Shown here: positions 12,072 through 57,408 of the stretch, piece by piece | Layout: each line of letters opens with the position of its first letter | Numbering within the stretch: the stretch's first letter is position 1 | Assembly: GCF_039555335.1 (NCBI RefSeq) | Contig: NC_092633.1 | Location: 21,228,334-21,292,333 of the forward strand | Source: Amphiura filiformis | Taxonomy: Eukaryota | Reading direction: 5' to 3' | Length of the DNA stretch: 64,000 bases | The notes under the pieces: generated by a model | The model's input: only the letters and a program-made list of their open reading frames with translations | Database searches by the model: none | Told to the model about the DNA's origin: nothing | Position numbers and translations under genes: made by a program

Positions 12072-12095
12072 GTAAGTTGTAGACCTACATATCTA

Positions 12096-14113: not shown

Positions 14114-14221
14114 TATTTCATTTGTATCTTATAGTGAAGTTAAATCTGATTACATAAATCTTTTTAATACTCAATATTTATTCCTGCTGAAAATTCTTTA
14201 ACAAATCTCTGTATTCGATAG

Positions 14222-27545: not shown

Positions 27546-27779
27546 TAACACGGTTGTGTTCGTGGGTTAGACCACAGCTAAGTCTAGTTGTTACTTGTTC
27601 TAATAATATTTTTTACAGATTTGGCGTTACATATATGAGCAGCTACAATGGCTACAGTACGTTCACTATCAGTGATTGTAATAATCTATCTGAACATTTC
27701 TCTGTTGCAATTTACACGTGCTCAATTTTATTGTAAGTATTTTTTTGTTTCAAAAAATATTTGTATTTCCTACCCTTAC

Positions 27780-30810: not shown

Positions 30811-30981
30811 CAAACATTGCTAACGTTCCACAGGAATGGATAGACTACTTTGGTTATTCTTATATTGAAAGATTAATTGAATATTATCACGGTGGGAATA
30901 ATGGCGGTGGGAATAATGGCGGCAGCAGTTATGACGGCGGCAACGATTTTTACTATTATTATCAAGATTACTACTACGATG
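30811..30981 (+). CDS. Candidate phase 1-1 exon encoding a Gly/Tyr/Asn-rich low-complexity segment; speculative, possibly upstream exon of the kringle gene
   Basis: Acceptor 'ctttaattccag|ca' and donor 'gatg|gtaagtat'. Open frame 'NIANVPQEWIDYFGYSYIERLIEYYHGGNNGGGNNGGSSYDGGNDFYYYYQDYYYD'. Confidence 0.3.
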
Positions 30982-34430: not shown

Positions 34431-37400
34431 GTTATGATTTTGGTATCAACGTCGGTGTGTCCGCTGGGTTTACTTTGTTGGTAATTTTCCCAATTTCCCG
34501 AAATCACATTATTATGTCATAACGACGTCATATGGGGATGTTTCTCTTCGTCTTTCCTTGTTTATATTAGGCTGGTGGGTAAGCATAATTAATTTATCTC
34601 GTACACTGGTGTGTTATGTGTTGTTTGTACTACTCATATCCATAAATACCAGACTTGAGCCTTGTTTGTCTTGAGCAGTCTATGTAGCTAAATGATTAGC
34701 GAATGTGTCCAAATTTGCTCGCACATTTTGATGCAACTTGTGTTTGCACTTGTACCTCTTTTGGTAATTGTCCAAATTGCAGGCAAATGTAGCTTAACCT
34801 ACATTTTCCCCCTCTAATTTATTTTTCCCTTCCCGTCTTTATTCGGATATGGTGAGACGGTCTTAGAAGTGCTTGGCTCCTGTTCGCTCCAGCCTTTCAC
34901 CATTTTGCAATTCCGACTACCAATGTTGTCAAAATTCCACTTCTCTTTAAAGATAGAACATGTAGAAAGGGTTCCAAATTCCAAACCAATTGTTCGTAAA
35001 TATGTACAAAAATGGGAAGAAAAGCTTAAAGCTACATTTGATCCTTCTAGATGGCCTGTTATTTTTAATACACCCTTCAAATGTACAATAAGTACTAAAC
35101 TCAGGTTCAGAATAATTCACAGAATCCTTGGTATAAACGCATTTTTATTCAAAATTGGGATAAAAGATTCCAGTCTGTGTACATTCTGTCTGGAAGAGAG
35201 TGAAACTTTGATTCATATGTTTTGCCATTGTCATGTGGTTAACAAATTTTGAGATGATGTGAAAAAGTGGATCGAGAACAAAGTTAATATAAATCTCTCT
35301 TGGAAAAATATTAATTTGCTTTTTGGCGTTAGTCCTAACTATATTGTTTTGGATTTGATTTTAATTTTATGCAGATTTCATATAAAATGAAAATGAAAGA
35401 AAACAACCCTTCAATCCACATTTTCAAGAAAGAACTGCAAAATCATTATAAATTAGAAAAACATATTTACATATGTAATAATAGTATTGGTTTATTTTAT
35501 CAAAGATGGGATATTTTCCAATTCACTTTGTAGAGAATAAGATCTAGGCCCTGAAACAGACGGAGAGGTTTCTATATGGGGGTGTGTAGGGATAAAACCT
35601 CGTAATGTGAGGTTATGTACTCATTGTACTTGTAGAGCGTTGTGTGAGAGTTTCTCTGTGTATATAAAATTATATTTCATAATGTGTATCATGTTTATCA
35701 TTGTGTATCACGTGTATAATTAATGATTACCTCTGTTTAAACTTAAACTTGAATAAATGGGTTTTTTTTCTGAAAAAAGGGGACATTTTTTTGGTCAAAA
35801 TCAACTCGCGAATGTACCATGTATGGATGATTTTGCAAGCCACATAGAAATATCGATTAGTTCTGCTGGGTATATTAGAAATGAAGTACTAAGTTGGACA
35901 TTTTGGCAGTCGCAAGTGAAAAAAAGGTGAAATATTCGGATATTCTGACAAAACTATAATACTATAAACTATAAACCCACACGATGTGCCTTACAGAGGT
36001 TGGAAATATCTTTCTTTAGCAAACTATATTATATAGTTTGAAACGCTAAAAAATGAATTCCAAAAAAAGCTCGCGGCCGAAGCTAAGGCCTATTAAAAAT
36101 GAAAAATCTTACACTAAAAGACACAATTTCATGCCTAGTGTGTCCGCTGGGTTTACTTTGTTGGTAATTTTCCCAATTTCCCGAAATCACATTATTATGT
36201 CATAACGACGTCATATGGGGATGTTTCTCTTCGTCTTTCCTTGTTTATATTAGGCTGGTGGGTAAGCATCATTAATTTATCTCGTACACTGGTGTGTTAT
36301 GTGTTGTTTGTACTACTCATATCCATAAATACCAGACTTGAGCCTTGTTTGTCTTGAGCAGTCTATGTAGCTAAATGATTAGCGAATTTGTCCAAATTTG
36401 CTCGCACATTTTGATGCAACTTGTGTTTGCACTTGTACCTCTTTTGGTAATTGTCCAAATTGCAGGCAAATGTAGCTTAACCTACATTTTCCCCCTCTAA
36501 TTTATTTTTCCATTCCCGTCTTTATTCGGATATGGTGAGACGGTCTTAGAAGTGCTTGGCTCCTGTTCGCTCCAGCCTTTCACCATTTTGCAATTCCGAC
36601 TACCAATGTTGTCAAAATTCCACTTCTCTTTAAAGATAGAACATGTAGAAAGGGTTCCAAATTCCAAACCAATTGTTCGTAAATATGTACAAAAATGGGA
36701 AGAAAAGCTTGAAGCTACATTTGATCCTTCTAGATGGCCTGTTATTTTTAATACACCCTTCAAATGTACAATAAGTACTAAACTCAGGTTCAGAATAATT
36801 CACAGAATCCTTGGTATAAACGCATTTTTATTCAAAATTGGGATAAAAGATTCCAGTCTGTGTACATTCTGTCTGGAAGAGAGTGAAACTTTGATTCATA
36901 TGTTTTGCCATTGTCATGTGGTTAACAAATTTTGAGATGATGTGAAAAAGTGGATCGAGAACAAAGTTAATATAAATCTCTCTTGGAAAAATATTAATTT
37001 GCTTTTTGGCGTTAGTCCTAACTATATTGTTTTGGATTTGATTTTAATTTTATGCAGATTTCATATAAAATGAAAATGAAAGAAAACAACCCTTCAATCC
37101 ACATTTTCAAGAAAGAACTGCAAAATCATTATAAATTAGAAAAACATATTTACATATGTAATAATAGTATTGGTTTATTTTATCAAAGATGGGATATTTT
37201 CCAATTCACTTTGTAGAGAATAAGATCTAGGCCCTGAAACAGACGGAGAGGTTTCTATATGGGGTGTGTAGGATAAAACCTCGTAATGTGAGGTTATGTA
37301 CTCATTGTACTTGTAGAGCGTTGTGTGAGAGTTTCTCTGTGTATATAAAATTATATTTCATAATGTGTATCATGTTTATCATTGTGTATCACGTGTATAA

Positions 37401-38100
37401 TTAATGATTACCTCTGTTTAAACTTAAACTTGAATAAATGGGTTTTTTCCTCTGAAAAAAGGGGACTTTTTTTGGTCAAAATCAACTCGCGAATGTACCA
37501 TGTATGGATGATTTTGCAAGCCACATAGAAATATCGATTAGTTCTGCTGGGTATATTAGAAATGAAGTACTAAGTTGGACATTTTGGCAGTCGCAAGTGA
37601 AAAAAAGGTGAAATATTCGGATATTCTGACAAAACTATAATACTATAAACTATAAACCCACACGATGTGCCTTACAGAGGTTGGAAATATCTTTCTTTAG
37701 CAAACTATATTATATAGTTTGAAACGCTAAAAAATGAATTCCAAAAAAGCTCGCGGCCGAAGCTAAGGCCTATTAAAAATGAAAAATCTTACACTAAAAG
37801 ACACAATTTCATGCCTAGTGTGTCCGCTGGGTTTACTTTGTTGGTAATTTTCCCAATTTCCCGAAATCACATTATTATGTCATAACGACGTCATATGGGG
37901 ATGTTTCTCTTCGTCTTTCCTTGTTTATATTAGGCTGGTGGGTAAGCATCATTAATTTATCTCGTACACTGGTGTGTTATGTGTTGTTTGTACTACTCAT
38001 ATCCATAAATACCAGACTTGAGCCTTGTTTGTCTTGAGCAGTCTATGTAGCTAAATGATTAGCGAATTTGTCCAAATTTGCTCGCACATTTTGATGCAAC
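34431..38100 (+). repeat. Tandem array (2.2 copies) of a ~1.69-kb unit, each unit a 5'-truncated L1/Tx1-like LINE tail (ORF2 C-terminus plus 3' UTR)
   Basis: Unit starts 'gtgtccgctgggtttactttgttggtaattttcccaatttcccgaaatcac' at 34431, 36137 and 37822. The third copy stops 22 bp before kringle exon 1. Confidence 0.65.
34869..35252 (+). mobile_element. LINE ORF2 C-terminal fragment with CCHC-like tail, copy 1 (identical copy at 36552-36935)
   Basis: '..KCTISTKLRFRIIHRILGINAFLFKIGIKDSSLCTFCLEESETLIHMFCHCHVV' resembles the conserved tail of L1/Tx1-clade ORF2 proteins. Confidence 0.55.
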
Positions 38101-38121
38101 ATTGATGTTTCTTTACCTTAG

Positions 38122-38400
38122 GACTGTTTAAAGCAGACTTCGAGTGCTTCCTTAGCCCTGCTGGTATTGATTATCGTGGTACCAAGTCGACGGACATTGA
38201 CGGTGCAGAATGCCTAATATGGGATGAAACGTCGCCACAATTTAATTCACTCAATTTTCCTAAAGCCGGGATTGGCTTTCACAACTATTGCCGCAATCCG
38301 GATCAAGACCCTACTGGACCGTGGTGCCTCGCAGCAAATGAAGATGGATACCAATATTGCGATATTGGTACCCCGACTGAGACTTTTTGCGACTGGTTAG
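38122..38400 (+). CDS. Kringle domain exon (complete kringle on one phase 1-1 exon)
   Basis: Acceptor 'ctttaccttag|ga' and donor 'gactggttag|gtaagatc'. Encodes 'ECFLSPAGIDYRGTKSTDIDGAECLIWDETSPQFNSLNFPKAGIGFHNYCRNPDQDPTGPWCLAANEDGYQYCDIGTPTETFCDW' with 6 Cys, DYRG, NYCRNPD, PWC and YCDI. Confidence 0.8.
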
Positions 38401-39811
38401 GTAAGATCGAATTTGCTTATTAATTTTTTTCATTGCGCATTTTTGCCCCGGGAATTTTACATTGGTCCGAGCTATAGAACTTCATCCTGGGGGCATGCAC
38501 TGAAAACTGAATGTGCGATCGTGCGGGCACTGCGCATTAACCTCTCTTTGTACTCTTTGAACGCCCAATCATCTTGATTCCCCTTTAAGTTAAAAAGAAT
38601 GTCATTCAAGTGAAAGAAACCTAGATTTCGTCATTGTCAATGCGCACAGCATCAATCCGTACTCTCGACAAATTACCGATTCGGAATTACCAAGATTAAC
38701 AATCGGAAAGTGTTCTCATCATTATTAGTCCCACAATATCAATTCAGAGGATGGCAGGTCATCAGTTCTTATCACCTGCTTCTTAATTATTCATTCAACC
38801 TTATGATTTCAACAAATGTATTAAGACGTACCTCAAATTTTCAGTCAGAACTTCATCAGGAGACTGATATTAAACCCAAGTTCGGAATCAGTGACCTTGG
38901 ACACTTGACCCCAAAACTTATCGGTTTTCCCTTTTCTTTCTTCTTGGTTTTGCCTTAGTTGAGACAAGTAACTGCCTCAGAGTTTGATGGTTTAAAACAA
39001 CCTCTGGTTCCATAACCGCCGAAAATTCTTCGTAGGGCTTGTGCCCGGGGCTTGTGCCCGCCAGATCTGAAGGCACTGCTACCAAAGGCATTTGTAGTCA
39101 GAAGAGCTACCCGCTCCAGCTTGTCCATGCCTTGCCACGCTCTCACAGTACCAGTTTCTAGAACCATGTCTACTGGCATGACCTTCATCCACACTGCAGT
39201 TCACCTTTGGAATAGTCAGAGACATATCTGACAACGGCGCACCACCCTTCAAGAGCAGAATACATAACCATCTTATTTTTCGTGTCTGATGGTTTACTGT
39301 ACCCTTTCATTCTTGTTGTCACTAAGCTGCTGTGAACCACTGGCATGACTGGTCCGATCACTAAGTGTGTTGCCCTGTTCCAAACGAGCTAATATAATTC
39401 TCAACGCTTTGTCAACGGGTACCGAGGTCAAAAGAACTGTGACATCTTAACATCGTAATTCTTCGTCCTCCTCAACTATTTACTTCGTGGCTAACAATTG
39501 TGTACAATAATTGTACGTGATTGTCCCGATGCTGATCACAATGCATGGTCTAAGCGGAATGTCGTTCTTGTGAACTTTGTTTTTCTTGTGCAACTCGTAA
39601 AATTTGGGTTGGTTTTCGGTGGTAGATAACAAATGTTTATAGCTGATAATACCACACTCTTTCTCGATTTCAAGAAGTACATTATGTTAATTGTTTCTTG
39701 TGCTTACTGTTTGGGTCCTTTTTACCAAAGTCCTTCTTGGTATATATTGGTGTCACTAAGAAGTTTCACACGTGTGAAGGTATTCTTTGCTATTATATTC
39801 TTTGCTAATAT

Positions 39812-40230
39812 GTGACGTCCCATGTCAAAAGCAGACACTTTTGGGCAGGTGATCAATTTTAAGGTTTTTACCTATCTTAAATATAAACATATTTTGCTCC
39901 ACAACGCCGTTTTTTCTAATGAAATCGGACATTCCTAAGCGAAGATATTGAGCTCGTAAGTTATGGTATTTTAAAATTGGAAATTGAGATATCGGCCTTT
40001 AAAAATATTATTGACAATCTTGAGAGTAGGAATTACCTTGAAAAAAATGTCTACAAAAATACAAGATGCCAGTTATATTCCGATCAGATAATATTTTAAA
40101 CATTAATAACATCACAAATTCGCAACAAACCCAAATTGTGAAAAAATCACCCCGGGCTGATTTTTGGCTATTTCTCCATTTACGATTCTGCCAAAAAGTG
40201 TCTGCTTTTGACATGGGACGTCACATATTT
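39812..40230. mobile_element. MITE-like element with ~35-bp TIRs
   Basis: 'catatgtgacgtcccatgtcaaaagcagacacttttgg' (39812) versus 'ccaaaaagtgtctgcttttgacatgggacgtcacatat' (40190). Confidence 0.45.
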
Positions 40231-40738
40231 GGATGGATGGATTTTCTGAAGCTGTTGCGAAGCTTCCCTCTCCTCCTTAGAAGGCTAGGGCGGCTTAAAA
40301 GGTTAAGTACGTTAGCTTTCAGGCTAGTCGCACCTGGTGGTAGTTTGCGACATGTTGGTTAGGAAGATATAACCATGGTAACAATGTCAACAACATGATT
40401 CCCTAACTTGGGTTGCCAGTCTCCTGATGAAGGGCAAAATTTGAGGTGCGTCTTAATTTTGTGTTGAGATCATAGTCTACCAACACAAATGAACTTCCAT
40501 AATACCATCAAATGATCATTATAATGTTATATATTTATGAATCCTGCTTAGGCTGTAGATAATAAATTTCGGATTTATATAGCGCCTTTTTCCAGATCTT
40601 TCGCTGCCGCACTTAGATTGTAACATCTACCAATTATCAATGCAGCTCCCCAAATTCCATTGGGTGAAGGAAGTTTTTTATAACCAAACAACTAATCACC
40701 GATTTTTTTTTTGACATTCAATATTTCTTAATGAACAG

Positions 40739-41002
40739 TCAGAGTAGACCCGAAGTGTTTCATAGAACCTTCAGGTTTGGATTATCGTGGTAATGTTTCT
40801 ACAACTGCAAGCGGCACACCCTGCATTGTATGGGAAGGAACTACATATAATTCAGAAACTTTTCCTAACGGGGGTCTTGGTAATCACAACTCTTGTCGCA
40901 ATCCGGATGGAGACGATACGGGACCGTGGTGCATTGCAGACGAGGGGGATGGGTGGGCTTATTGTGACATTGGTACGGCAAGCAACGAATGTGAGGTAAA
41001 AG
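40739..41002 (+). CDS. Second kringle domain exon (phase 1-1)
   Basis: Acceptor 'aatgaacag|tc' and donor 'gtaaaag|gtaagatc'. Encodes 'KCFIEPSGLDYRGNVSTTASGTPCIVWEGTTYNSETFPNGGLGNHNSCRNPDGDDTGPWCIADEGDGWAYCDIGTASNECEV'. Confidence 0.8.
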
Positions 41003-42765
41003 GTAAGATCTCAGACAAAATATGCAAGTGTATGGTTCAGTTTTAGTATTCGCCATTCGATGATCTCAATTCTTCCTGTAGTGGCGTACCTCAATGTATG
41101 AGTACTATCGGTTACAGGTCGATAGTCAAAGGGTCATTAGTCCAAAAACCCAATAAATGTAGGCCCTATTATATCCTTTCCCTAACGCTAAACTTCACTC
41201 TAACAGTATCCTATATACCTATAAAGCTAATCCTAACCCTAACCTAGTACCCACACTGTCATCGCCCCGATATCTTCATGGCAGAATTCGCCATGATGGT
41301 AGAACGAATCCACTTGTTCTTCAATAGCCACGCATGTTGTTCAGACCTGTTTAATAGTTTTGAGACGCAAAATGGGCCGAGGGACATCCGACCAAGGATT
41401 GACAATAGCCCGGTGACTGCCCTCTGTAGATCTCACAGTGAGCCTGGTACGTCATCTGCATTAGACTGCCTCCACCAGTGGTCCACATTGCGCTTGTAAC
41501 ATGATATGTTTCGTTACCCCGATTGTTTACAAATGAGGGCAGCTGTCATTTTTGTCTGTTCTGCATATATAAAATCTGAGTTTTTGACTATCATGTTCTT
41601 TCAACACATATATTCAAGTGCAAGCCTTAAAATCGGCATCTTTAGAAAGCAAATATTACGGGAGATATTCATCATTTTCTAACCCGGCATCCAAAGATTT
41701 ATCGTCTAAATATCAAATCGTGCATAGCACATACACGTGTATCGATCCCGAGTATTGATTTTAGTTTCCCTGCTGTACAATGGAGTTATTTACCAGGCGA
41801 TGTCGGTGTGCTACCTATCCTCTTCGGGCCCTGTGGCCCATAAGCCTGCAAGTCTCCTCCTCCAGCTGTCCCTGTCTCTAGCTATTGGATTGGCTTCGTT
41901 CCATGACCTCCATCCTAACCCTAAACCTGACTATAATCTTAACTCTGTCCCTAACTCAAGCTTATCCATATCCCTAAAACCTAATATTAACCATAACCCT
42001 AACCTTCACTCTACCTAACGGTACTCTACTCTACCTTAACCTAACATAAAATCATGAAAATCGTTAACTTTAAACATTTTGGGACTAATAATCCGTCGGA
42101 GTAAATGGGCTGTTCCCGTATTATTGTAAGGCGTTCCTGGAGCCTGGGATTGATTGCATATATCAGAACCGGGAATTATCCCCCTTCACCTTTAGGGAAT
42201 AGCTCTGACACTTAAGGTGCACAGGGATGACTCTTCTGTACACAGGAGCGGGAACAACAACGAGATACCTTGTATACACTACCTTACACTGTTAAGCATT
42301 GTATAGGGGTGAGAAGATTTTTCACAATATTATTATATTTTGCGCTGCTTTAACAATCAGAGAAACAAACTAATCTCACAGTAACTGGACACAATCGTAG
42401 GATTCCCGAGCAGTACCTTATAGGAACATTTTGGGAGAGGAAAAGAATTCTCGCCTAATGCAAGCCCAAGGCTCGAACTCCCGGTTCTCCCGACCGACAG
42501 CTTGGCCAACTCACCATCTCTCCCAGAAAAAATACCAATTTTTTCCTACCAAAACCATATTTAGCATGTATGTTACTTTGGATGAAATATTTCATTAGAT
42601 CCATGATGACGGCCAAAATCACAAATTTCCACTAAAATCCTTTAAAAACACATATTTAGAATGTTATTGAACTATTTGATCGGTTAATATAGACACACAA
42701 CAAATAAAAAAAAAACCTTTAAAAGTCATATATATTGCTCGGGCAACATCATATCATTGGCAAGC

Positions 42766-44340
42766 TAATATAGGTTTTCTCAGTTCATTTAACACATTTT
42801 TCGTTATATTTAATATCCCGTTAAGTTTGAATTCGTCCATAAAATTTTGAAGTGTCTATTTGTAAACTTAAATTTCGTCTTTGGTCAACTATATTCATAT
42901 TTTGATCAAACATATTCATACAATTATCATTTAGTTTCGTCCAAATGTATTTAAATTTCGTCCAATGTAGGGGTTATCAACTTAATGTGTAAATATATTT
43001 CGTCTTTGATCAAATCTTTTCATATTCGGGTCATTTAATTTCGTCTTTAACATAAAGCATGTAGAAATAGGCCTGCATATTTTCTTTTTCCTTCTGTCTT
43101 TCTCTTTTTTATTTTTTTTTATTTATCTTTCCATTTTTATATATTTCATATTTCTTTATTTTGTTTTCTTTTATTTTCGTTCTTTCTTTCTTTTCTTTTC
43201 TCTTCTTTTATTGTTTGTTTTGTTTTTTGTTTTGTGTTTTGTGTTTTAGGTTGTTTTTTGTTTGTTTGTTTTTGTTTTTTCTTTTGTTTCTTTCTAATTT
43301 TTATATCTCAAACGTGCACGTGGTTGTATGGCCCTCTTTGTCTTGCTGCCATATTATTGTGATAACTGTTATTTGGTCAGAATAAATTCAGACGCGTCTG
43401 TTCGGATTTATATCAGCAAAGTGAGAACTAGTGTCATTTCAATGCATTGAAATAGGAATTGAATTGAATTTTATTTAGGCCATTTTCATTTCAATTCAGG
43501 GAAGTGAATCGAAATGGTGTTTTTTATTTGAATTCAATTAAATTCATTTCAAATCAATGTTTTTATTCTTTCATTTCAATTCAATGCATTGAATCGAAAT
43601 GTATTTTTTGTTCATTTGAATTCAATTCATTGCATACAACATGTATTTGATTCTACCATTTCACCTGTATTGTCAGCTTATCAGTTACAATGAACTTTCT
43701 CCCGGGACTTCTTTTAGCCAAATGTCAGGTAAAATATATCAGTGTTGGAAATAAGAATTGAATTTGAATATGAATTGAATTCAAATGCTGTGAATTGGAA
43801 TTGAATTCAAATGATGTGAATTGGAATTGAAATTGGTTAGCAGTTAATTTCTATGCATTGAATTGGAATTGAATCAAAATGATTTAAAGTAGAGAAGAAT
43901 TGAATTGAAGTTGCATCAAAATGATTTTATACAATAAGAAAGAGACTCAGAATTGAATTGAAATTCATTTTCTGAATCGAAATAACATTAGTGAAAACTC
44001 AATATCAGTGGTTGAAATCTAAGATGTAATTAATAAAGGCCTACAATGCATTATGGAGGACGAATTGCTTTGATCAAAGCATGAAAATTAATGAACAAAG
44101 ACGAATTATATTTGTGCAAGTACTGTCCGTGCAGCAGGTGCGACGATTTCAATGCGCTCTAGGACGAAATCAAATGAACATTTTATGAATCTATTGGATC
44201 AAAATATGAATTTATTTGACCGAAGACGAAATTTAAGTTTACAAATAGACACTTTCAAATTTTATGAACGAATTCAAACTTAACGGGATATTAAATATAA
44301 CGAAAAATGTGTTAAATTAACTGAGAAAACCTATATTATG
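42766..44340. mobile_element. Long-TIR / foldback element (~1.6 kb, arms ~150-290 bp) containing a CT-rich microsatellite and an AATTGAATT satellite
   Basis: 42766-42900 'aatataggttttctcagttcatttaacacatttttcgttatatttaatatcccgttaagtttgaattcg..' is the reverse complement of 44190-44340. Further matching arm segments extend to ~43060 and ~44040. Confidence 0.5.
43420..43990. repeat. AATTGAATT-based satellite (units ~25-30 bp) inside the long-TIR element
   Basis: 'gaattgaattcaaatg(c/a)tgtgaattggaattgaattcaaatgatgtgaattggaattgaaattgg' with inverted half-arrays. Confidence 0.6.
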
Positions 44341-45096
44341 AGGACAATGAAAATGACTCCTTTTTTGAGAAAATAGGACGTTTAAAATTGATATTCCGCA
44401 AAAAACAACTTAAGCGGTGAGTTCCTTCGAACGAGACAGATTTGACCTAGAAAAAAGTTGACGTCATTAAATGAGATGTGCCTGCTTTGAGAGAAGGGAC
44501 TGTAAACGCTCTCAATGCACAGAACGTATACTGTTGTTGTTCTCAGAAAAAACCCTCTGAATCAAGTATTACAAATTTAATGTTTTTTAAACAAAATGGA
44601 TCAAATCAGCCACTTCTTTTTATTTCTTAAATTGTGATATTACAATTCATATGTATATCAACAACATGAGAAATATTTGGACTAAAAAATAAAAAAATAA
44701 TATTTTGAGCTTAGAATTTGAGACTAGTATATTAAGGTATACTAGTCTCAGTGATCAATATTTATACATGAATCATAGATCATCTAGATGATCTCTGCAT
44801 GATTTTGAAATCAGAGCGTCACAACAGTATGCTCCCTGCTCCAAAAAGTAAAATACACGGTAAAAACCTCAGGAATGCTCAACAACTTGACCCGCCTAGA
44901 TGCAAGAGAACTCGCTAAAAAAATCAACAATTCCTGCAGTTGTGAATCTTTTAAATTCTTAATTTGTTGTTTGTCAAAATGTGTTTTTTATAATATTTCT
45001 GTGTTTTTTGATGTATGCATTGTTAACCAGATGTCTCAGTTTTCTGACTGTATATCTGGATTTTTATACCGTAATAAATAAAAAATTAAATAAAAT

Positions 45097-46140
45097 ATGT
45101 GGCAGATGAACTTCAATGCCGACAAGTGTTTTGTTCTTAGACTCACATATGCAAAAGCCCCTAAACAACATCAATATAAATTAGGAAACAAAATCTTACA
45201 TAATACATCATCTCATTCGTATCTTGGTATCGAAATAACATCTGAACTCAAGTGGAGAATCATATCCAATCTAAAGTGGCTAAGGCCAATAGGGCCCTGG
45301 GATTCATCAGGCGTAACCTATATTCTTGTCCAAAGGACCTGAAAACTATGGCTTACCAGACCTTAGCCCGACCTCACTTGGAATACTCATCTACCATATG
45401 GGATCCCCACACCCAAGATCTGAAAGACCAACTTGAAAAGATAGAAAGTAGGAATGCGAGATTTGTTTGCAATGACTTCAGACGTAAGTGTTACAGCCAT
45501 GTTGGACGCCCTTCAATGGGATACACTTGAAAACATAAGAAATGCAGCTAGACTATCCATGTTCCTCAAAATTCATCATGGTCAGACTGCCATACCGGCA
45601 GTAAAATTCTTACAACCGGTCACACGCATATCTAGAAACAACCACATCCAAGCATATAAACTAAAGACATCAAATAAGGACTGTCATAAGTTCTCCTTCT
45701 TCCCGCAGATCATAAAAGATTTAACTCCCTACCAACAACCATAGCAATCATACAAGACAATAAGCAGTTCAAAGAAGCAACCATAACACATCTAAAGCAA
45801 GGAACAAAAGGACTAAAATACCCTAGCGCACATCAAACATTCTTCTCGCTTGGCTCTTTAAGAGCGTTGCGAATATTGTACCAGATCCAGATGGTGCCTT
45901 CGCGAAAGAAAATTTCTTAGATGATTAACTTTTCAAATGGTTTGTGTATTTGAAGGTGCAAAATTAACAATAAGGCGCCCGGTGCTGCGTGCAAAACCAC
46001 ATACCTTTGCAAAATATGATATTTTGCATATGCAAAATTACATACTTTCCAAAAGTATGTAGTTTTGCATATGCAAAACTACATACTTCGGCAAAATATG
46101 TAGTTTTGCATATGCACAATATCATACTTTACGGTCACTA
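45097..46140 (+). mobile_element. LINE 3' fragment: frameshifted RT C-terminus plus 3' UTR with 'tttgcatatgcaaaa(c/t)tacatact' tandem repeats
   Basis: ORFs in three frames: 'MNFNADKCFVL..SHSYLGIEITSELKW', 'KANRALGFIRRNL..AYQTLARPHLEYSSTIWDPH', '..LQWDTLENIRNAARLSMFLKIHHG..LQPVTRISRNNH' (the conserved LINE ORF2 tail). Repeats at 46005-46135. Confidence 0.6.
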
Positions 46141-49100
46141 TGAAAAAATACATGTTTTGCTGGGAAACCCCGTGCAGTTCGTGTTTGTGAATAAGGGCGC
46201 ATGTCACAATGATTGGTAACTTCAAATTTTAAAAGGCAAAATATAGCGGATAGTGTATGTAACAAATGAATTAGCAATATCTGTATCTGTCTCCACAATC
46301 CTAAAGTATTAGCCCGGGAGTATTAGGCTACATATAATATAAATTATTCTATGAAAGTAGAGAATATTATAATAGTGACCGTATCCATTCTGCCCCTAAA
46401 GCCGATACCGAACAACACATAAACAGCCTTGACCTGCGGTTGTCTATATTCTGAGGGATTTGCATGTTGGTCATTAGAAGATAAATAATTATACAGAGTG
46501 ACCTTCAGCTTCTCCGTGTTTGGTCAGACCTACCGTATAGGCGTAGGCTGCATGGGGTGTATCCTGCATAAATTAGTGTTCTTGTTCAAACCTGAGACTA
46601 GTATACCTCAGGCTCAAACACATGTTTCACACTTAAGTGTGCGCTGCATGACTGTATGTTTCTGTTTTCAGGGATGATTATCCGGGTTGGTACAATTTGT
46701 GACCCTACTTCTCATACCCGACTTTTCATACCCCACTTGACCCAACTTTTTATCGTTATGATAAATCATTTTAGATATTTCAATGAATACTAAATAAAGT
46801 GTAAATGAAGTCTACCGAATTGAAAAGGCTAAATCAGTGTAATTGGTGAAAAATTATGATTTAGAAATTATTATTTATAAACATCGCCCTTCCTCGTGCG
46901 CAGCCATAATCTCCAAACCAGTCGTTCATAAGTTACCTTTTCATGAGGAAGTATATCTGTCTGTCACATTAAGATCTACGCATGGTGACATTATAAACAT
47001 CAATATTGTCATTGCATGTTATTCCGCCCTTTCACTGCTACCAACATTTGAGATTAATTGAGTATTGACTTCAGTAGCTTTCAGTGTACCGCTCAGTTGC
47101 TCCAAGCAAGTTAGCATATCAAGGCTTAATTGGTCAATGTATTGTGATAAAAGCAAACACTTATTGATTGGCTTGAGCAAACTTTATAACCAGGTTTAGG
47201 AGTGTTCAGAACATGGGGGGGCTGGGCACTTGGAAATTGGAGTCAAAAGTTTTGACCCCCCCCCTCTTCTTCCTTCCTTCCATATGTGCTTACCTCAACA
47301 GTTTGAGTATCAACGCACGGGCTTTACGTACGTGCAGTTTTGCAGAGAACCTGAAACTGTTTTGACCCCCCATCTTTGGACATACAAAACATTTTAGATC
47401 AACCCTTTCCAAGAATTTAAAAAACAACTTATGATTTGTGCAGTAACGAACTCAATCCCAATTTACATTATAACAAGTATGCACTAAGTTTTAATGGTTA
47501 TACATTTTTTTAATTTATAGGCCTTTAAGCCTATTTCCTACACTGAAACATGCAAGTTTTATAGGGTGACTTGTATGAAGTTTAATTTCATTGTATGCAT
47601 TCTAATTTTTTCATGTTTCATTCTTAGAACCAATAATTAAATAAAAATAACAAATTGAGAGAAACATCTGGGCACATACTCAAGATTTTTAGTGCTTTAG
47701 ACTTGTTTATCAGGGGCGTAATTTTTCTTGGTCAGTGGAAAAATATTAATTTCGGGGCAAAGACGAAAAAAATATCGGTTGCATCATTTTGACCCGGTAT
47801 TATCAGTGGAATATATACATATACTCTTTTCTTATAGAGACTGGATAAATGTAAAGTCTTCGAGCTTCCAAAAAGAAATGTTGTATGTTCTTGTTCTTTT
47901 GGTATTTTCTTGTTAAAACTTTTTTGACACCCGCCCCCTATCAGGAGCAAAAACTTTTTGACTCCCCTTTTGAAGACATAAAACTTTTTTGACCCCTCCA
48001 TTTTGCCACCCCCCCCCAAAGTATTTCTGAACAATCCCTTAGTCCAGGCGATTAGAATTGCACAGGGCTCAAAACTCATCAATACTAATCACAATTTTGT
48101 ATCTAAATATGGCTGAACGAGGCTTTGAAATTTGAGATGAGAAAATGCTTGAAAACACTGTTCTTTATCAATAATATTAAGGAAATGTGTATGGTATTTG
48201 CTTAATATTTGATTACCAACGGAATAAACTGCGAATATCTAACAAAACTTTAAAAATAAGTCGAGTCAGGTGGGGTATGAAAAGTCGGGTATGAAAAGTA
48301 GGGTCACAAATTGTACCAACCCTGATTATCCTATAATGTCTAATAAATGATGAGGGACAGTAATTTGGTAGTATGCACCCTTACAACACACATCGCGCGG
48401 TGTTTCTTTATGCAAAATTAAAGTTATGCAAAACATGATACTTTGTAAGTATGTAGAAATGAATGCTATACCGGTTTTACCGCCGCGTTCAGCAACTCAT
48501 ATCATTACGACACTTGTAAACAACCCGTGCTCGATTTTAATTGACAGATGACGTCAGACGCAAGCTAGTCTATTTATCTCTGTCTATAATTATAGTGAAC
48601 GCATATACATGTATTAACATGTCTATATATAATTCGAAGCATTTATCTAAGACTAGAGTGTAAAGAATGCAATTTTTCCATACAAACAGATTAAAATCTG
48701 GATCTTGCATACATCTGGACGGACTAGCACATCCATGCCCGCAACCAAAGATTCCCCTTTTTTACCAAAAAAGTCCCATTTAACGAGCGAAAAAATTGGG
48801 TGTATCCTTGGTGTAAGATATTCATGAGTTAAACTACAGTTGTAAAGACTCCATTGTGGAATTAAGCAGCTTACGGAATAATGCTGTATAATCCTTCAAT
48901 AGAAGATTTGTGATAGGCTAATTCCATGCAATTTTACACGAAAGATAAACCAAAAATTGGGATTTTTTTATGCCTTTTTGGTCCAAAAAGGTCCAAATTT
49001 TGGGGAAAAATCCACTTTTTCAAAATCCGCCTCCAGTTCAAAAAGGTCCAAATTTTGAAAAAAAATCCACTTTTTCAAAATCAGCCCCCCCCCCCCAATA

Positions 49101-49317
49101 AATCCTGGTTACGGGCCTGAGCACACCTTACATATTTCATAGTGTGCGCCCAATAATTACAGTTTGTAGCAAGAAATTACACTGAACGTTCCAAAGACAA
49201 AGTGCAGTGATTGCAATGTTAGTCATTTTGCAATGTTCGTCATTATTTACCTATCCCTATACCATTAACATGATTAACATACGAGTATCCTTTTTTTATT
49301 TCAATGTATATCATTAG

Positions 49318-50442
49318 ATCCATTCGACATCATCGAATCTTCAATAAGCGAATCTTCAATTTTCGAATCTTCAATAATCGAATCTTCAATAATCGAATCT
49401 TCAATGAATTTAATTACGACGGTTTTACCAACAACAACAGCCTTGGTAACAACAACGCCGGTTCCAACAACTACGTCTATTCCAACAACTACACCGATTC
49501 CGACAACTACACCGGTTCCAACAACTACTCCTATTCCAACAACTACACCGGCTCCAACAACTACGCCTGTTCCAACAACTACGCCTGTTCCAACAACTAC
49601 GCCTGTTCCAACAACTACGCCTGTTCCAACAACTACGCCTGTTCCAACAACTACAACTGTTCCAACAACTACAACTGTTCCAACAACTACGCCGATTCCG
49701 ACGACTACGACTATTCCGACAACTACACCGGTTCCAACATCTACACTGGCTCCGACAACTACGCCAGTTCTAATAACTACACCCGTTCCGACAACTACTC
49801 CGGTTCCGACAACAACACCGGTCCAAACAACGTCGGTCCTAACAGCAACCTTCGACCAAACAACTATGCCAATCCAGACAACAACATCTGCCCCAACAAC
49901 TATGACAAACCAAACAACAACTTTACAGCAAACAATATCATCATCAGCTGCAATGTCAATAATAACAACAGAAGTAGCGGCAGCAACACCAATTGAAACG
50001 ACATTTTCATCACACATTCCGACGACAGAAGGAATGCATACCGTCGAAAACCCGTCAGTGCCTCCGACAACATCGCAAATAACACCAACGTCAAAAGGAG
50101 CAACAACTGCCTTAGTTGAAACCACTTCGGTAATTCAACAGACACCATCAGCAACTACGTCGTCAGCAGCATCGACGCAACATGAAACGACATCACACGG
50201 AATAACATCAGAAATTACAACAAAAGACACAGATAAACCTTCTACAGCAGGTTCAACTGAAGGCTCAACTGAAGGTTCAAATGAAGGTTCAAACGAAGGT
50301 TCAACTAAACGTTCAACTGAAGGTCCAAATGACGGTTCAAACGAAGGTTCAACTGAAGGTCCAAATGAAGGTTCAAATGAAGACTCAAATGCAGGGTCAA
50401 CTGAAGGTTCAACTGAAGGTCCAAATGAAGGTTCAAGTGAAG
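49318..50442 (+). CDS. Mucin-like TM gene copy B, PTS-domain exon; 78 nt longer at its 5' end than copy A via a 15-bp x5 in-frame repeat
   Basis: Same acceptor 'tcattag|AT' and donor 'gtgaag|gtaatt' as copy A. Encodes '(D)[52 protein letters not shown]...STEGSNEGS'. Confidence 0.7.
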
Positions 50443-51019
50443 GTAATTATAAAGGTACTGTATTATGTCGTCGTTATCATTTTCTTCTCCTACCTCTTAG
50501 CAAGTTTTATGTATGGATGTATGTGAGTATATGGGTGTATGTGTGTAAAAAGGGCTTCGTCAGTTTTGATCCAAATCTCGCCAAATGCACACGGGTGGTC
50601 GAGAAATAATACGAGGAGTAGGGCCTATTTGAAACTACATTTGGGTGAAATTGGTAAACAATTGGGATCAAAATCGGTGAAAATGTGAGTTTGCACCCCA
50701 CACAATGCAATGTATGACATCATTTCTAAATTTGAGGACATACGGTATTAAACGTCAGCGTGGTCAACAGGTTAGAACACATGTGGCAACTAGCCAAATC
50801 AGTAAGTGAAATAAATTTCTGGTTAGTATGTTACACAGGAAAGAGTTAACTGTTAGTAGGATTCAATGATTTTGTGTTTATTTATTAAAGATCTTCTGAA
50901 CTGCACCTGAATCCTTTGAACTTTAGTAGGAACATATTTGCCTCCATTTTAACACAAAATCAGAGCAACTTTAATTTTCAACCCCTGTTAACATGAAATT
51001 TGACCTTGGGCACGTTGAG

Positions 51020-51505
51020 GTTAAATACCACTAAAATATATTACACGGGTTTCAATGGGAAAATGGCTAATTTCGGGTGGAATTTTCTCATATTCAGAAC
51101 TCTCACAGTTAAATGCCACTAATATCAGGTGAAACTATATGATTTAGATGCCAAATGATCAAAAATTCAACATAGGTTGACCTGAGACTTTTCTTGTTTT
51201 AACGCATTGAACCGTAAACCCATTAAAATGACAGTGCGCCCTCGAAGCTGAAAGTTACAATATGGTAGGGCGAATATTTACTAAAAACCAAAGCCGTGCG
51301 TATGAATTTTGGTACTATTACAACAAAAATGTCATATAATGAGAGAAAATGTACCATTTTGAAGCATAAAACCCTAAAAAATACTTTTTTGGCTATACTT
51401 GATCAATTTCAGCGATTTTAATGCAGTCTTTTCAGACGCCATGAAAAAAAATAGTTACTCGTCGTATTTCAATGTATCGCCCAGGCCTATTAGTGGTATT
51501 TAACC
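51020..51505. mobile_element. ~490-bp MITE inserted in intron 1 of copy B, with perfect 11-bp TIRs and 5-bp TSD
   Basis: TIRs 'ggttaaatacc' (51020-51030) and 'ggtatttaacc' (51495-51505). TSD 'ttgag' at 51015-51019 and 51506-51510. Copy A at ~10215-10230 shows the empty site 'cacattgagcctcaaaac'. Confidence 0.7.
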
Positions 51506-51818
51506 TTGAGCCTCAAAACTTGGTATTTACTCTCACAAGTGTTATATTTTTGAGATCCTTGGGGCCAGGCGAATAATTTGCTATGTTTTTAAGTATTTAA
51601 TTTTTTGGCCCGTATAATCCTATATATAGGGGCATTTTGGAGGTCCTACTACATACTACACGAGTTATAACCAAATAGAGAGAAATAAAAAATGGCTTAT
51701 CATTTAGCCCATTGCGACAACAGGTTTGCTAACTGAAATGATAAAATAGTATTAGAAGATAATGTTCTGGTATTGTAGCTGACCTTTCAACAAGCTATTT
51801 TATGCGTTTTTGCCATAG

Positions 51819-51946
51819 ATGACACTAATGGTGTAGAAAAACACTTTGAAGTCAGTATTCATGTTGATTCTTTCAACTATGAACCGGCGAGCTTTGACAT
51901 GCCACAGGGACTTCTAAACGAACTAATTGATACCACAATTGATACG
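51819..51946 (+). CDS. Mucin-like gene copy B, SEA N-terminal exon
   Basis: Same splice sites as A2. Encodes '..FEVSIHVDSFNYEPASFDMPQGLLNELIDTTIDT'. Confidence 0.75.
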
Positions 51947-52377
51947 GTAAGCACATAATAATCTTTAGTCCTGTATCTACGGGAAGTTAATGATGACCCC
52001 CACAGGGCTCTACCAAACCAACCTTTTTAGCTTCCTTTTATGGTCCTATAACACATTCAAGATGTTAACAAAAAATAATTCCCGGCACTCCGGCCATATT
52101 CAAGGTTAAAGGTCAACACAGTGGTCAAATTTCAAATCTGAATAACAAGCACACCAAAGTATTTCCCTCATTCGGGATTCAGAAAAAGTATAGTTTGACC
52201 TACATGCGACATACCGTTCATGAGTTATAAAAAAAAGGTCAAATTTTGGGGGCCACACATAGGCCAAAAATTAAGAATGCTCAGATTTCAACGAAAATGG
52301 TCTCAAATTGCTTGTCATGTAAAAACAAGTCAAAGAAGGAATCGTAACTTTTGTGATATTCATTTTCTCTTTTGCAG

Positions 52378-52597
52378 ATGGAAAAAGAGTTTCGTAAAAA
52401 GACCGACAAGAAAACTAAAGTGATATTGAAGGGTTCCCGTGAAGGCAGTGTTATCGTGGATATGTTAGTCAATTTTTCTTCCGGTGAAAACGTCACTGTA
52501 GACAATGTCTTGCAACCGATGTGTGATTTCCTGACTGAAGATAACTACCTTGGAGATTCCACGCTGAAAATAAACCCAGATCGAACAACTGTGAGAG
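52378..52597 (+). CDS. Mucin-like gene copy B, SEA exon with GSVIV
   Basis: 'MEKEFRKKTDKKTKVILKGSREGSVIVDMLVNFSSGENVTVDNVLQPMCDFLTEDNYLGDSTLKINPDRTTVR'. Donor 'gtgagag|gtaaac'. Confidence 0.8.
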
Positions 52598-52989
52598 GTA
52601 AACACATACCAAAAAGTAATTACCCCCATTAATTAATGACCATTTAATAGTCAAACACGGTTGATCGTATGCCAAATTTGTTACATGCAGTCGAACCAGA
52701 ATTTATTCCTGCGCATTATGACACCTCATTTATTGCTATTGATGCCACAGTGAATATTTAAATGAACTTAACCCAAGATTTGAAAGTTGCAGCAAAATAT
52801 TGTTATCACTGTTGTTACTATTGTCATGATTGTAGCTTTAGTTGCTGCTGATGTTGTTACTATTATAGCAGTATCATTATCAGTTTGAAGAATGAAGAAA
52901 CGATTTAACAATTTAACGATTCTGCAATGACCTTGGTCACTAAAGTAGCTGTAAGTATAAGCTTAGGAAATACAGTCAAATATAAGCTG

Positions 52990-53760
52990 TATATCAGTGT
53001 TGTAGTCGAGACCGGCCTATCCGAGACCAAGACCAAGACCGAGACCAGGCAGTCCGAGACCGAGACCAAGACCGAGACCAGCTGGTCCGAGACCAAGACC
53101 AGCTGGTCCGAGACCGAGACCAAGACCGAGACCGCCAGGTCTGAGACCGAGACCGGGCATGAAAGTAATATCATTAATAAATTAATCTCGGTGACTGGTA
53201 CATGATGGGCCATACAATCTATTTTTATAGTGCTAGATTTTTAAGCAAGGATACCAAAATTCAATTATTTTTCAAAACATTTGGATCCAAAACAAGCGAA
53301 ATAATAAGGCGGTTCAAATGACCCGTTAGTAACATCAAAAGGGTAATATTCATGGGCCCAAAAGCTATAAGAAAATGCACTCATAAAGCTCAATGCGCCT
53401 TTGATCATGGTGATATAAGTTGCAGGTAGCGTTATCTGTTATCCCTCTAATGATTCAATTGATGAAAACTGTTTGAGCAAATTACTGCCAGATAACCAGA
53501 ATGGTATTATTTTGCCTGTCTCGAACCCGGTCTCGGACCGAGACCAGGAGGGCCGAGACCGAGACCAAGACCGAGACCGGCAGGTCCGAGACCGAGACCG
53601 GGCATGAAAGTAATATCATTAATAAATTAATCTCGGTGACTGGTACATGATGGGCCATACAATCTATTTTTATAGTGCTAGATAGTGCTAGGGCCGAGAC
53701 CGAGACCAAGACCAGCAGGTCCGAGACCAAGACCAGGCTTAGCTGCTTATCTTATGAAAG
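52990..53760. repeat. Copy-B-specific intron-3 insertion carrying (GAGACC/AAGACC)n hexamer microsatellites in both orientations and an internal ~100-bp segmental duplication
   Basis: 'gagaccaagaccaagaccgagaccaggcagtccgagaccgagacc..' at 53010-53160, inverted at 53520-53580. Duplicated segment 53140-53235 = 53585-53690. Absent from copy A intron 3. Confidence 0.5.
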
Positions 53761-54379
53761 TATAAGTTTCCTCAGCAGTAGGAAGGAGAAAGAGTAGAGC
53801 TAGCAACCTCAACTTACTGATTACCAGTAGCGTATCCAACTCTTCGAAACCAGTGGAGGGCACAACATTGCCAATGTACCGACGGCCTAAGGGATGTCCT
53901 CCCAACTTTCAAATCTGGACCTCACTACATTAAATTGGCCGGTTTTTCATTGTTTTCTCGGCTATCGTATCAAATGAGGTGTCAAAATGCGCAGAAATAC
54001 ATTCTGCTTCCAGTGCATTGATACAGATTTGTAATACAACAGCCCGTTTTTGAATAATGGCCATTACTTACTTGAGATGTTTAGTTTTCCTAGTATTATA
54101 TCAATTGACTGACAAAGGCTGTTACCAATGCCAAATACTTTGACCCCTCGCCCTCAGCAACCACAAGGTCTTGATGAAACCTTCATGGGGGAGGAGGGCA
54201 CTCAACATACGTATTAGGCCTATGGGGTGTAGGGGTTTTCGGAATTGCCAGAGAGCCTAAAATGGAACCCTTGACCGCCGCACATATCCATAATTCAACC
54301 GTTATAAATGTTGCAGTATGGATGCAAGTAGTAAGACATGGTCATCTAACTCCGCCATTTTCTCCTATTTCTCTTTCAG

Positions 54380-54455
54380 AATTATGTGCAGAAGGTTTCT
54401 GTTTCAATAATGGCATTTGTAATTACGATGCAGGTCTTAATTCAGAGACATGTTT
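54380..54455 (+). CDS. Mucin-like gene copy B, EGF-like exon
   Basis: 'ELCAEGFCFNNGICNYDAGLNSETC'. Same splice sites as A4. Confidence 0.8.
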
Positions 54456-54597
54456 GTAAGTAGTAGACCTGCAACATCTATTTTCAGTGTAGCTTATAAT
54501 GAAGTAATCTGATTACATGAAGATTCTGGTGAAATCTTTTTAGTACTCAATATTTATTCCTGCTGAAAATTCTTCAACAAATCTCTGTATTCGATAG

Positions 54598-54752
54598 GAG
54601 TTTCACTGGATACTCTGGCAGTAACTGTCAACAACCTGATGTATCAAAGACGACGGAAAAACCACTTACATCAAATAAACCTGGTGTAACCAGACTCGTT
54701 CCTGTGGTGATAAATGGCAACCCCGCACCGGTCGTCTACTCATCTAATAACG
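54598..54752 (+). CDS. Mucin-like gene copy B, EGF end plus linker exon; 12 nt shorter than A5 (in-frame)
   Basis: 'LSFTGYSGSNCQQPDVSKTTEKPLTSNKPGVTRLVPVVINGNPAPVVYSSNN'. Intron 4 is only 142 bp here because the Tc1 insertion is absent. Confidence 0.75.
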
Positions 54753-55765
54753 GTAAGTGTGTACAGGATATAGTCACAAATTTATCAAGGGCTGTACCAC
54801 CTTAACAGAAAGTAATTATAGGATAATTTAAAAATGCCACAACGAAACTTAAGGTGGTACTACACCCCTTGATAAATTTGTGACTATTTTTGTATTTTTC
54901 TCAAAAAATGATAACACACGGGTAACAAAAGCTATGTATATTATAGGGGCAAGGAATCCAATTAATACACTGGAATTTCAGTGACTCAAGACAAGTGGTA
55001 CGTTATTTATGATAAGAAAAGAGGTACCACTAGAATGTACCTAATTTCTTAACGTATATAATGAACCACTTGTCTTGAATCCTGAATTGGATTCCTTGCC
55101 CCTATAATATACATAACTTTTGTTCCCAGTGTGTAGTTATTTTTTGAGAAAAATGCAAAATTAGTCACAAAATTTACCAGGGGGTGTAGTATCACCTTAA
55201 CAGAACGAAATAGTGTGCGATAGCGTGATAAGGCAGCTACCACATTTTGCTTTTAATTTTGAAAATTGACCCTTCCGTTGTCATCGTAAGTCTTGTATTT
55301 CAAGAACGAAGACATACAAACATCCAAAGTTCAAAATTCCCAAAGTGCATGAAAGTTGTCTTATTGTACAATTGCATAGATTATTCTATCTTGTTTTGTT
55401 CAGGAATAAATACTAAAAACACAATTTCCGACCGCCAGAGACACCCTGTGTTCGGTTTATTAATTACTTGAGCTGGAAGAAGGGGCTAGGGTGTACCCTC
55501 GAAAATCAACTTCTAATAAACGTGTGTAGATTGGTCAATGAGTTACAGAAGTATGAACGATATCCTCTTTTGTCTTGCTTAAATTGCAACAAAATGTGCC
55601 CAGAAGATGGGGGTCGCGGGCTTTAAAATACCGACATCAATATAAAAAAAAAGGATTCACAAACTCGCCCTCCCAATCGCCCTTCATTGCTATACCATCT
55701 GTACTGATTTGATTCATTTGTTATTGTTTAAATGAATAAGAACCGTAGAGTTTATTTCTCAACAG

Positions 55766-55862
55766 ACACGTGGTTGTTCGTCGGCATTCTTAGTGGGATT
55801 GCCATGGCTTTGATGATATTTCTCGCCCTTATGGTGGCGCTGATCTACTGGGTACAGAAGAA
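55766..55862 (+). CDS. Mucin-like gene copy B, transmembrane exon
   Basis: 'DTWLFVGILSGIAMALMIFLALMVALIYWVQK'. Donor 'gaagaa|gtatgt'. Confidence 0.8.
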
Positions 55863-56837
55863 GTATGTATCATTACTATAGCTATATACATATATGACGT
55901 GAAAAAAACACGAGAAGAATTGATTACCTACTGACATAATACTTGTAAATGAAAATAAGAAACTAAGTCACGCAACCCGTTATTAGTTTGGGTGGCTCTA
56001 TTGCCCCTTTTCTTAAAAAGAGTCAGGGATAATCCTGACGAAAACTTGACAGTTTTATATACTTGTCCGACGGCTAACTCTATATAGTGAATATCCGCCA
56101 CGGCTGTAAGGCCTATCAAGTAATAAAGTCATTTTATTCTCTTCTTTAAGGAACCGGATAGCGATATTTTCACGTATTTTTTGTGGGATCTGAGAGCAGA
56201 GCACATCAGACACACCAAATTGCATTTTGAATACGAGGAATGTCCTTATGATACTAAATAATTTTGAATTTTTTTAAATTCGCGATATAACACAAATCTT
56301 ATGGCAAAGTATTACAAATTGAACGGTCCTCGAAGTAAATTGTATCAATGTAATGATAATGTACTTAAAGTCTATATAGCTGAAAGGAAAAGCTGTCCAT
56401 CATATGAAACTTTTGACCTTTCGTATTGAAAATATACATTTTCCCCCACAACTACCTAAAACCTTTTGGTCTTTGGAGGAAAAACTATTTATAATGCGAA
56501 AGGTTAAAATTTACATATGATGGACGGCTCTTCCTCCCAGCTATATAGACTATAAAGTAGAGTTTACTTCCAAGACTGTTAAATATGAAAAATATAAATT
56601 TATAATTTCCATAACATTTGTATTATATCGCAAATGTCAAAAACAAAATCAAAATTATTTGGTATCAGAAAGCCATTCCTCGTATTCAGAGCAATTTGGT
56701 GTGTCTGGTGTGCTCTCAGGCCCCACAAAAATACTGTGAAAAGGTGGGTGACCGACCCCTTAAATTAACTTCCAAGTTTGCATGCATTTTTAAACAATAG
56801 CTACAAGACACGTCTATATCTTTCTTTGACACATTAG

Positions 56838-57408
56838 GGCTTTTCGCCACTTGTACAAAGTGGGTGACATAGAGGCACGTCTAAGCAACAACCAACCACT
56901 TAAGGACTCTCCAAGATCCAATTTACAATCTGCAATATCAGAAAGTGACGAGATTGTTCCTGTGGATATAAGATTGGATCAGAATTTCTTCTTGCGATCT
57001 GTGCCACCTGCTTCCAGCGATTCTCCAGAATATGCCACGACAGGAAAATCACGTGTTTCCGAAAGCGATGAGACGGGAGATACGGATGATCAAGGAAGTG
57101 AACCAGCTCATGAGGCTAAAGAACAGTTTGATGTGGGTGAAAGTCCCAATCAGGAAACTCAACGCAACAAAAAGGAAAACGCCACTTACCAGGAATCATC
57201 TGACCTATCTCCCCCATTGCGACCACCTTTACCAGAACCAGCAGTAGAAGAGCCAAAGAAAAAGAAGCGTAAATGGCCAGCACATCAGCGTGTTCGTAGC
57301 TTGGTTTACAATCCAATACGTGAGGTTTACCATGTTCAACTTGCACAAGCAAATCCTTTACAGGAACCCTCTAACTTCCACTATACCGCATCATATTGGC
57401 CCAAATAA
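56838..57408 (+). CDS. Mucin-like gene copy B, terminal cytoplasmic-tail exon with stop at 57406-57408
   Basis: 'KAFRHLYKVGDIEARLSNNQPLKDSPRS..EPKKKKRKWPAHQRVRSLVYNPIREVYHVQLAQANPLQEPSNFHYTASYWPK*'. AATAAA overlaps or immediately follows the stop. Confidence 0.75.

Follow-up and report, generated by a model that had tools for sequence, protein, structure and literature searches.

Introduction

SEA-EGF transmembrane mucins, whose vertebrate type is represented by MUC3, MUC12, MUC13 and MUC17, are also found in echinoderms (for example XP_022083523 from Acanthaster and XP_072050660 from Amphiura), and there a proline/threonine/serine-rich (PTS) domain is followed by a SEA module with the motif G|S-V/I-V/I, an EGF-like module, a single transmembrane (TM) segment and a cytoplasmic tail. 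PIK3IP1, Kremen1/2 and ROR1/2 are kringle-bearing type I membrane proteins, and small proteins with two or three tandem kringles are present in ambulacrarians, some of them with short Thr-rich linkers and two of them, from Saccoglossus, with an N-terminal membrane anchor. Here we describe a locus of Amphiura filiformis (NCBI RefSeq assembly GCF_039555335.1, contig NC_092633.1, positions 21,228,334 to 21,292,333 of the forward strand) in which two single-kringle exons, K1 and K2, lie upstream of copy B of a duplicated mucin of the SEA-EGF layout. The whole stretch of 64,000 nucleotides (nt) is referred to as the window and all positions are counted from its first letter. Judging from the order of exons and from what lies between them, we estimate the chances as even that the copy B mucin gene includes K1 and K2 as constitutive or alternative cassette exons.

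Such a gene would differ from each of the described systems. PIK3IP1, Kremen1/2 and ROR1/2 have an extracellular kringle on a single-pass membrane protein, as is proposed for the copy B product, but they possess neither a mucin stalk nor SEA, and their WSC, CUB, Frizzled, Ig and kinase domains are missing from the window model. The small ambulacrarian kringle proteins do not have a long PTS domain, SEA, EGF or a C-terminal TM segment, and K1 and K2 are closer to each other than to them. The SEA-EGF-TM mucins, in turn, are not known to have a kringle, while in the window the EGF-like module has lost the fifth cysteine and neither SEA nor EGF is scored by Pfam. The combination of kringle, PTS, SEA, EGF and TM would be new, with every module coming from a well-known family.

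Two kringle exons

Both K1 and K2 have intact reading frames and encode one complete kringle each (Table 1), as a sequence-only reading of the window had claimed. The Pfam Kringle family (PF00051, curated cut-off 34.3 bits) is matched by K1 with 59.2 bits (E = 5e-16) and by K2 with 56.1 bits (E = 4.8e-15), scores that are far above chance. In the phase-1 translations six cysteines are found in each exon, together with DYRG, NYCRNPD or NSCRNPD, GPWC and YCDIG, and a column-by-column alignment with the kringles of plasminogen places the six cysteines at the canonical spacing around the NYCRNPD...GPWC...YCDI core. When the K1+K2 pair was compared with PDB, human plasminogen was matched with E = 8e-53, and the kringles of Kremen and ROR were matched as well. 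Since both exon lengths are divisible by three, both exons are symmetric (phase 1-1) and carry a G over the junction, again as had been read. The acceptors are ...ccttAG| for K1 and ...gaacAG| for K2, and the 9-nt donor G|GTAAGATC is common to both. No third kringle or kringle relic is present in the window.

Table 1. Positions of the exons and other features discussed in the text.
Feature	Positions	Strand	Description
Mucin copy A	8596-17352	+	same seven exons as copy B, every splice site retained
Candidate first coding exon	27648-27732	+	ACAATGG start, MATVRSLSVIVIIYLNISLLQFTRA|QFY, donor T|GTAAGT, phase 1
G/Y/N/D-rich exon	30811-30981	+	171 nt, phase 1-1, ccAG acceptor, G|GTAAGT donor
Tandem repeat	34455-38110	+	1683-bp unit, 2.17 copies, 99.4% identical; LINE zf-RVT fragment; intron filler
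Kringle exon K1	38122-38400	+	one complete kringle, phase 1-1, 279 nt
Kringle exon K2	40739-41002	+	one complete kringle, phase 1-1, 264 nt
Interval between K2 and PTS exon	41003-49317	+	8.3 kb, intron or intergenic; transposable element and repeat debris
PTS (mucin) exon, copy B	49318-50442	+	1125 nt, phase 1-1
SEA-like module, two exons	51819-51946, 52378-52597	+	G|SVIV motif
EGF-like module and stalk, two exons	54380-54455, 54598-54752	+	fifth Cys missing
Transmembrane exon	55766-55862	+	hydrophobic, about 27 residues, WLFVGILSGIAMALMIFLALMVALIYW
Cytoplasmic tail exon with stop codon	56838-57408	+	190-residue tail

K1 and K2 are 52% identical to each other, and the best database proteins among the matches listed, ambulacrarian "plasminogen-like" and "apolipoprotein(a)-like" proteins from Saccoglossus, Ptychodera, Diadema and Asterias (P0002-P0019), reach 33-49%. 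We infer that the pair arose by an old tandem duplication of an exon. That K2 has the donor of K1 at this level of divergence suggests that the K2 donor has continued to be used, which requires a downstream exon starting in phase 1. The canonical lysine-binding pocket of kringles consists of paired Asp residues, an aromatic wall and a centre of cationic Arg/Lys residues, and it marks a functional subclass, not the fold. In an alignment with kringle K1 of plasminogen both Asp residues of D-x-D and the Trp of PWC are retained, Leu or Ile stands where plasminogen has the Tyr after Cys, and nothing corresponds to the cationic residues (…HRPRF…, …KRY…); because the cationic centre is missing, canonical lysine binding by the K1 and K2 kringles is doubtful.

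The tandem array of 1683-bp units stops 12 nt before the K1 acceptor, therefore part of the polypyrimidine tract of K1 is repeat-derived. The near-identity of the units could be an assembly issue.

The duplicated mucin

Copy B of the mucin was rebuilt exon by exon and gives a continuous frame of 790 codons, beginning at the phase-1 acceptor of the PTS exon, in which a long PTS repeat domain (375 codons with PTTTP(V/I) repeats), the SEA and EGF-like modules, a single TM segment and a cytoplasmic tail follow each other, which is the layout of transmembrane mucins. The PTS exon starts with AT after cattAG, hence the G carried by the K2 donor completes an Asp codon (G+AT) and the K2-PTS junction is in frame, in agreement with the sequence-only reading. 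Phase 1 is found at five of the seven exon boundaries of the mucin. The first part of the PTS exon of copy B (49332-49400) is made of 4.6 copies of a 15-nt tandem repeat coding for (I/F)ESS(I/S) units, which copy A does not have, and the stop codon TAA overlaps the poly(A) signal AATAAA (CCCAAATAAAATAAAAAAG, 57400-57415; the equivalent in copy A is at about 17350).

In a comparison of the window with itself, 8037-17567 (copy A) and 48629-57598 (copy B) are 85-94% identical, and 5' of the matched region dispersed repeats alone are held in common. Outside the PTS domain the coding sequences of the two copies are 97.3% identical, with a synonymous divergence (dS) of 0.045 and a ratio of nonsynonymous to synonymous divergence (dN/dS) of about 0.5. 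Both copies look functional, since no splice site is lost and the coding sequence (97.3%) has changed less than the matched blocks around it (about 85-94%); for the same reasons the possibility that copy A is a pseudogene was ruled out. Neither an ATG nor a signal-peptide exon is present in the part of the duplicated block that precedes the PTS exons (8037-8595 and 48629-49317), so both copies must import 5' exons from elsewhere. Both points had been anticipated in the sequence-only reading. A conserved 5' exon upstream of both copies was sought with blastn and tblastx, which returned only repeats and a 26-nt chance match. Two candidates were dropped: an open reading frame (ORF) starting MLVILQCSSL... 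just 5' of both PTS exons uses the acceptor TAG as its stop in another frame and lacks a usable donor, and MSVYLLLLLLRLSRH... at 7586, 5' of copy A, is a CTT microsatellite with a weak donor.

The labels SEA and EGF rest on remote homology, as Pfam is silent on them: neither Pfam SEA (PF01390) nor EGF is matched by the spliced 415-residue C-terminal part, even at E = 10. A phmmer/HMMER search of 1.84 billion cluster representatives (about 15 billion proteins) found 13 relatives of the mucin, the named ones coming from Acanthaster and Amphiura. In five of them (P0109-P0113, E = 2e-6 to 6.5e-5) the matched stretches overlap their own Pfam SEA and EGF domains, and the homology of copy B to SEA-EGF-TM proteins over such stretches is remote throughout (E = 1e-6 to 1e-4). 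GSVIV of the window aligns with GSIIA, GSVVA and GSIIV of the relatives and the Ser is invariant. A profile made from the family alignment matches Notch and EGF structures (E = 4e-11), the fifth Cys being replaced in both window copies, and it also matches residues 161-225 of the ADGRF1 chain (E = 1.2e-4), a stretch of the N-terminal extracellular part that we take to be the SEA domain of that protein. N-terminal modules of the SEA-EGF-TM relatives vary (HYR, LDLa, F5/8C, EGF, PTS), and a new head module would fit the pattern of the family.

Without their fifth cysteine (…ETC-L-S-FTGYSGSNC) the EGF-like modules of both copies (54380-54752 and 11996-14388) have an odd number of cysteines. A Cys of the SEA module (QPMCDF), which is missing from the aligned relatives, might be the partner of the odd one.

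The cytoplasmic tail has relatives in only two other assemblies in the phmmer search: one 19.8-kb contig (ctg310841, here L001) of the ENA assembly ERZ25070167 and two sequences, L002 and L003, from GCA_013332995.1. The tail is kept in the proteins P0104 and P0105, and the motifs DEIVP-DIRLD-NFFLRS, KKKRKWP-HQRVRSLV-NPIR and (F/Y)-Y-T-SY are conserved across the three assemblies. The mucin-tail family appears to be restricted to a lineage without annotated genomes.

Sequence upstream of copy B

Contig L001 carries the same mucin exon series (PTS, SEA1, SEA2, TM and tail, at 213-8263), and 1.35 kb 5' of its PTS exon there is a 147-nt exon rich in G, S, Y and D, with consensus splice sites and phases 1-1, in frame with the PTS exon. 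The sequence-only reading had pointed to a G/Y-rich phase 1-1 exon in the window, and its AG acceptor and GTAAGT donor are indeed present (Table 1). A composition scan in six frames finds one segment of this kind in L001 and one in the 64-kb window, namely this exon, a result that is stable at several thresholds. No segment of the G/Y type was found in the twelve top kringle matches retrieved, nearly all of which are kringle-only. As it stands 5' of PTS in L001 and is missing from the retrieved kringle matches, this exon type goes with the mucin family, and the exon in the window is probably a 5' exon of that family, judged by its composition and position. It lies 5' of K1; if it is of the mucin type, the start of the copy B transcription unit is at 30.8 kb or further 5', and K1 and K2 are inside the unit. 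A direct splice from the G/Y exon to the PTS exon would be in frame too.

Pfam was run on all stop-to-stop ORFs with a minimum length of 28-30 residues, from 17.4 to 49.3 kb on the plus strand and from 27.6 to 49.3 kb on the minus strand, the tandem repeat being covered up to 36.1 kb. In the whole of this range the only domains returned were the two kringles and one remnant of zf-RVT from a long interspersed nuclear element (LINE). Neither 41-49.3 kb nor 31-38.1 kb holds a signal-peptide-like first exon, i.e. an ATG with a hydrophobic segment and a phase-1 donor. For the signal-peptide exon, which according to the sequence-only reading was to be sought between 17.6 and 38 kb, one candidate was found (Table 1). 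It lies within chance expectation, such candidates occurring at a rate of about 1.2 per 64 kb per strand, and is for that reason not significant alone.

Discussion

If the exons of the window are joined as proposed, the transcription unit of copy B would extend on the plus strand from about 27.6-30.8 kb to 57.4 kb, in the order possible signal-peptide exon, G/Y exon, K1, K2, PTS, two SEA exons, two EGF-like exons, TM and tail. All junctions of this 11-exon model are in frame, and it is free of stops over 1056 residues. Such a unit would encode a type I membrane glycoprotein, directed to secretion by the signal peptide, in which the roughly 375-residue Pro/Thr/Ser-rich stretch is presumably O-glycosylated and forms a rigid stalk, while the two kringles at the tip would serve as a protein-binding head. 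The SEA module may cleave itself at G|SVIV, after which non-covalent contacts would hold the outer part in place, and the conserved motifs of the tail may act in trafficking or signalling. What favours one kringle-mucin mRNA is that the G/Y exon on the 5' side and the PTS exon on the 3' side bracket the kringles and that no other first exon or intervening gene was found. As to its origin, the kringle pair would have been inserted in one paralogue, by shuffling of symmetric 1-1 exons, into the long intron that separates the G/Y exon from the PTS exon. We put at slightly under even the chances of this wider reading, that in a recently duplicated SEA-type mucin pair one copy gained symmetric kringle exons in its long first intron and the sister copy and the nearest relative remained without them.

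Many observations weigh against a kringle-mucin gene, and a number of them fit an alternative that we regard as plausible, though clearly short of an even chance, namely that there are two genes, one of which, composed of a signal-peptide exon, K1, K2 and perhaps the G/Y exon, encodes a small secreted protein with two kringles, the other being a separate mucin copy B. In that case the kringle gene would end soon after 41002, either because the K2 donor is read through (…CEVKGKISDKICKCMVQF*) or with a short last exon that escaped recognition, and copy B would have a small first exon of its own within 41-49.3 kb, missed by the first-exon heuristic. Where the K2 donor stays unspliced, the frame runs on for 15 codons as GKISDKICKCMVQF to a stop at 41044-41046, and AATAAA follows at 41153, about 110 nt later; from the sequence a short secreted two-kringle isoform made by such read-through is possible. 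The short kringle model has 282 residues, the same size class as the closest kringle relatives among the matches listed, hemichordate and echinoderm proteins of 157-300 residues that are nearly all kringle-only. The argument from small proteins is weakened by the match list itself, which is biased to small proteins and holds nothing above 311 residues; protein match lists appear to span about 0.55-1.7 times the query length, and long kringle proteins would fall outside that range. A kringle is present in none of the eight SEA-EGF relatives scanned, nor 5' of the PTS exon of copy A within the 8.6 kb covered by the window, where a G/Y-rich exon is missing as well, nor between the G/S/Y exon and the PTS exon of L001. 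The lack of kringles upstream of copy A had been stated in the sequence-only reading and is borne out; its possible chimeric gene gains some indirect support from the K2 donor, from the lack of a signal-peptide-like exon after K2 and from the G/Y-type exon of L001, and is countered by these kringle-free relatives. The intron between K2 and PTS would be 8.3 kb long, as compared with 0.14-2.3 kb for the K1-K2 and mucin introns, and LINE fragments in sense orientation lie in it, which the Pfam scan did not confirm. With phase 1 at so many mucin boundaries, phase compatibility is weak evidence, and the likeness between the G/Y exon and its counterpart in L001 is one of composition only, as the two do not align. 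Among the matches listed from 5.8 billion proteins no same-species or full-length protein was found for K1K2, for the C-terminal part of the mucin or for the tail; two JGI metagenome scans (with K1 and with the tail profile) returned only a known 1.2-kb NCBI contig; and a full-text literature search found no paper on a kringle-SEA mucin.

Other results speak for the single gene. Evidence against two separate genes comes from the lack of a signal-peptide-like first exon with a phase-1 donor in 41003-49317, from a duplicated A/B block that has no conserved start exon, from the preservation in K2 of the 9-nt consensus donor of K1 at only 52% protein identity, and from the G/Y-type exon, which accompanies the mucin in L001, the only relative available, and not the retrieved kringle matches. 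It could also be supposed that the kringles lie in the first intron of mucin B and are normally bypassed by a splice from the G/Y exon to PTS, as remains of a decayed gene or as cryptic exons in rare use, copy B being then an ordinary mucin. Such a splice would reproduce the arrangement of L001, and the available sequences of copy A and L001 contain no kringle, but we consider this explanation unlikely, because both kringles retain six cysteines, core motifs, open frames and consensus splice sites, because their divergence with these features intact points to long maintenance under selection, and because symmetric intronic exons with strong splice sites are usually included at least sometimes.

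If K1 and K2 are exons of the copy B gene, the protein would have an undescribed architecture, in which a glycosylated SEA-mucin stalk bears a protein-binding head of kringles, and the locus would be a clean natural case of gain of a module by insertion of exons into an intron, for which the sister paralogue, unmodified and 40 kb away, would serve as internal control. If the genes are separate the locus is an ordinary one, with a small kringle gene beside a duplicated lineage-restricted mucin. In either case the parts come from well-known families, so the wider impact is modest.

Other features of the window

The second EGF exon shows a 12-nt indel between mucin copies A and B (167 and 155 nt). 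A 490-bp segment at 14831-15322 is 93% identical to 51018-51507 and occupies non-equivalent introns: in copy A it follows the EGF exons, in copy B the PTS exon. Either a mobile element or a rearrangement accounts for it. Just 5' of the A/B homology block, at 7750-8030, there is a satellite whose period is about 72 nt and which on the minus strand reads as a KETKATEVT repeat. Further upstream a direct repeat, 84% identical, is found at 1-115 and 7341-7456, 7.3 kb apart, and 211-237 is the reverse complement of 7538-7564. Going by these flanking repeats, a large insertion may be present upstream of copy A; if it is real, the boundary of homology at 8037 may differ from the original breakpoint of the duplication.

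On the minus strand an ORF of 337 residues (20669-21679) includes a motif like a 2A self-cleaving peptide (…ILAGDVEQNPGP…) and has no Pfam match; it is probably ORF1 of a retroelement. Between 58.8 and 64 kb several open frames on the same strand resemble exons of fibronectin-III type, with a weak match to Pfam FN3_DSCAM (E = 0.0018), and they look like part of an adjacent gene that continues beyond the end of the window.

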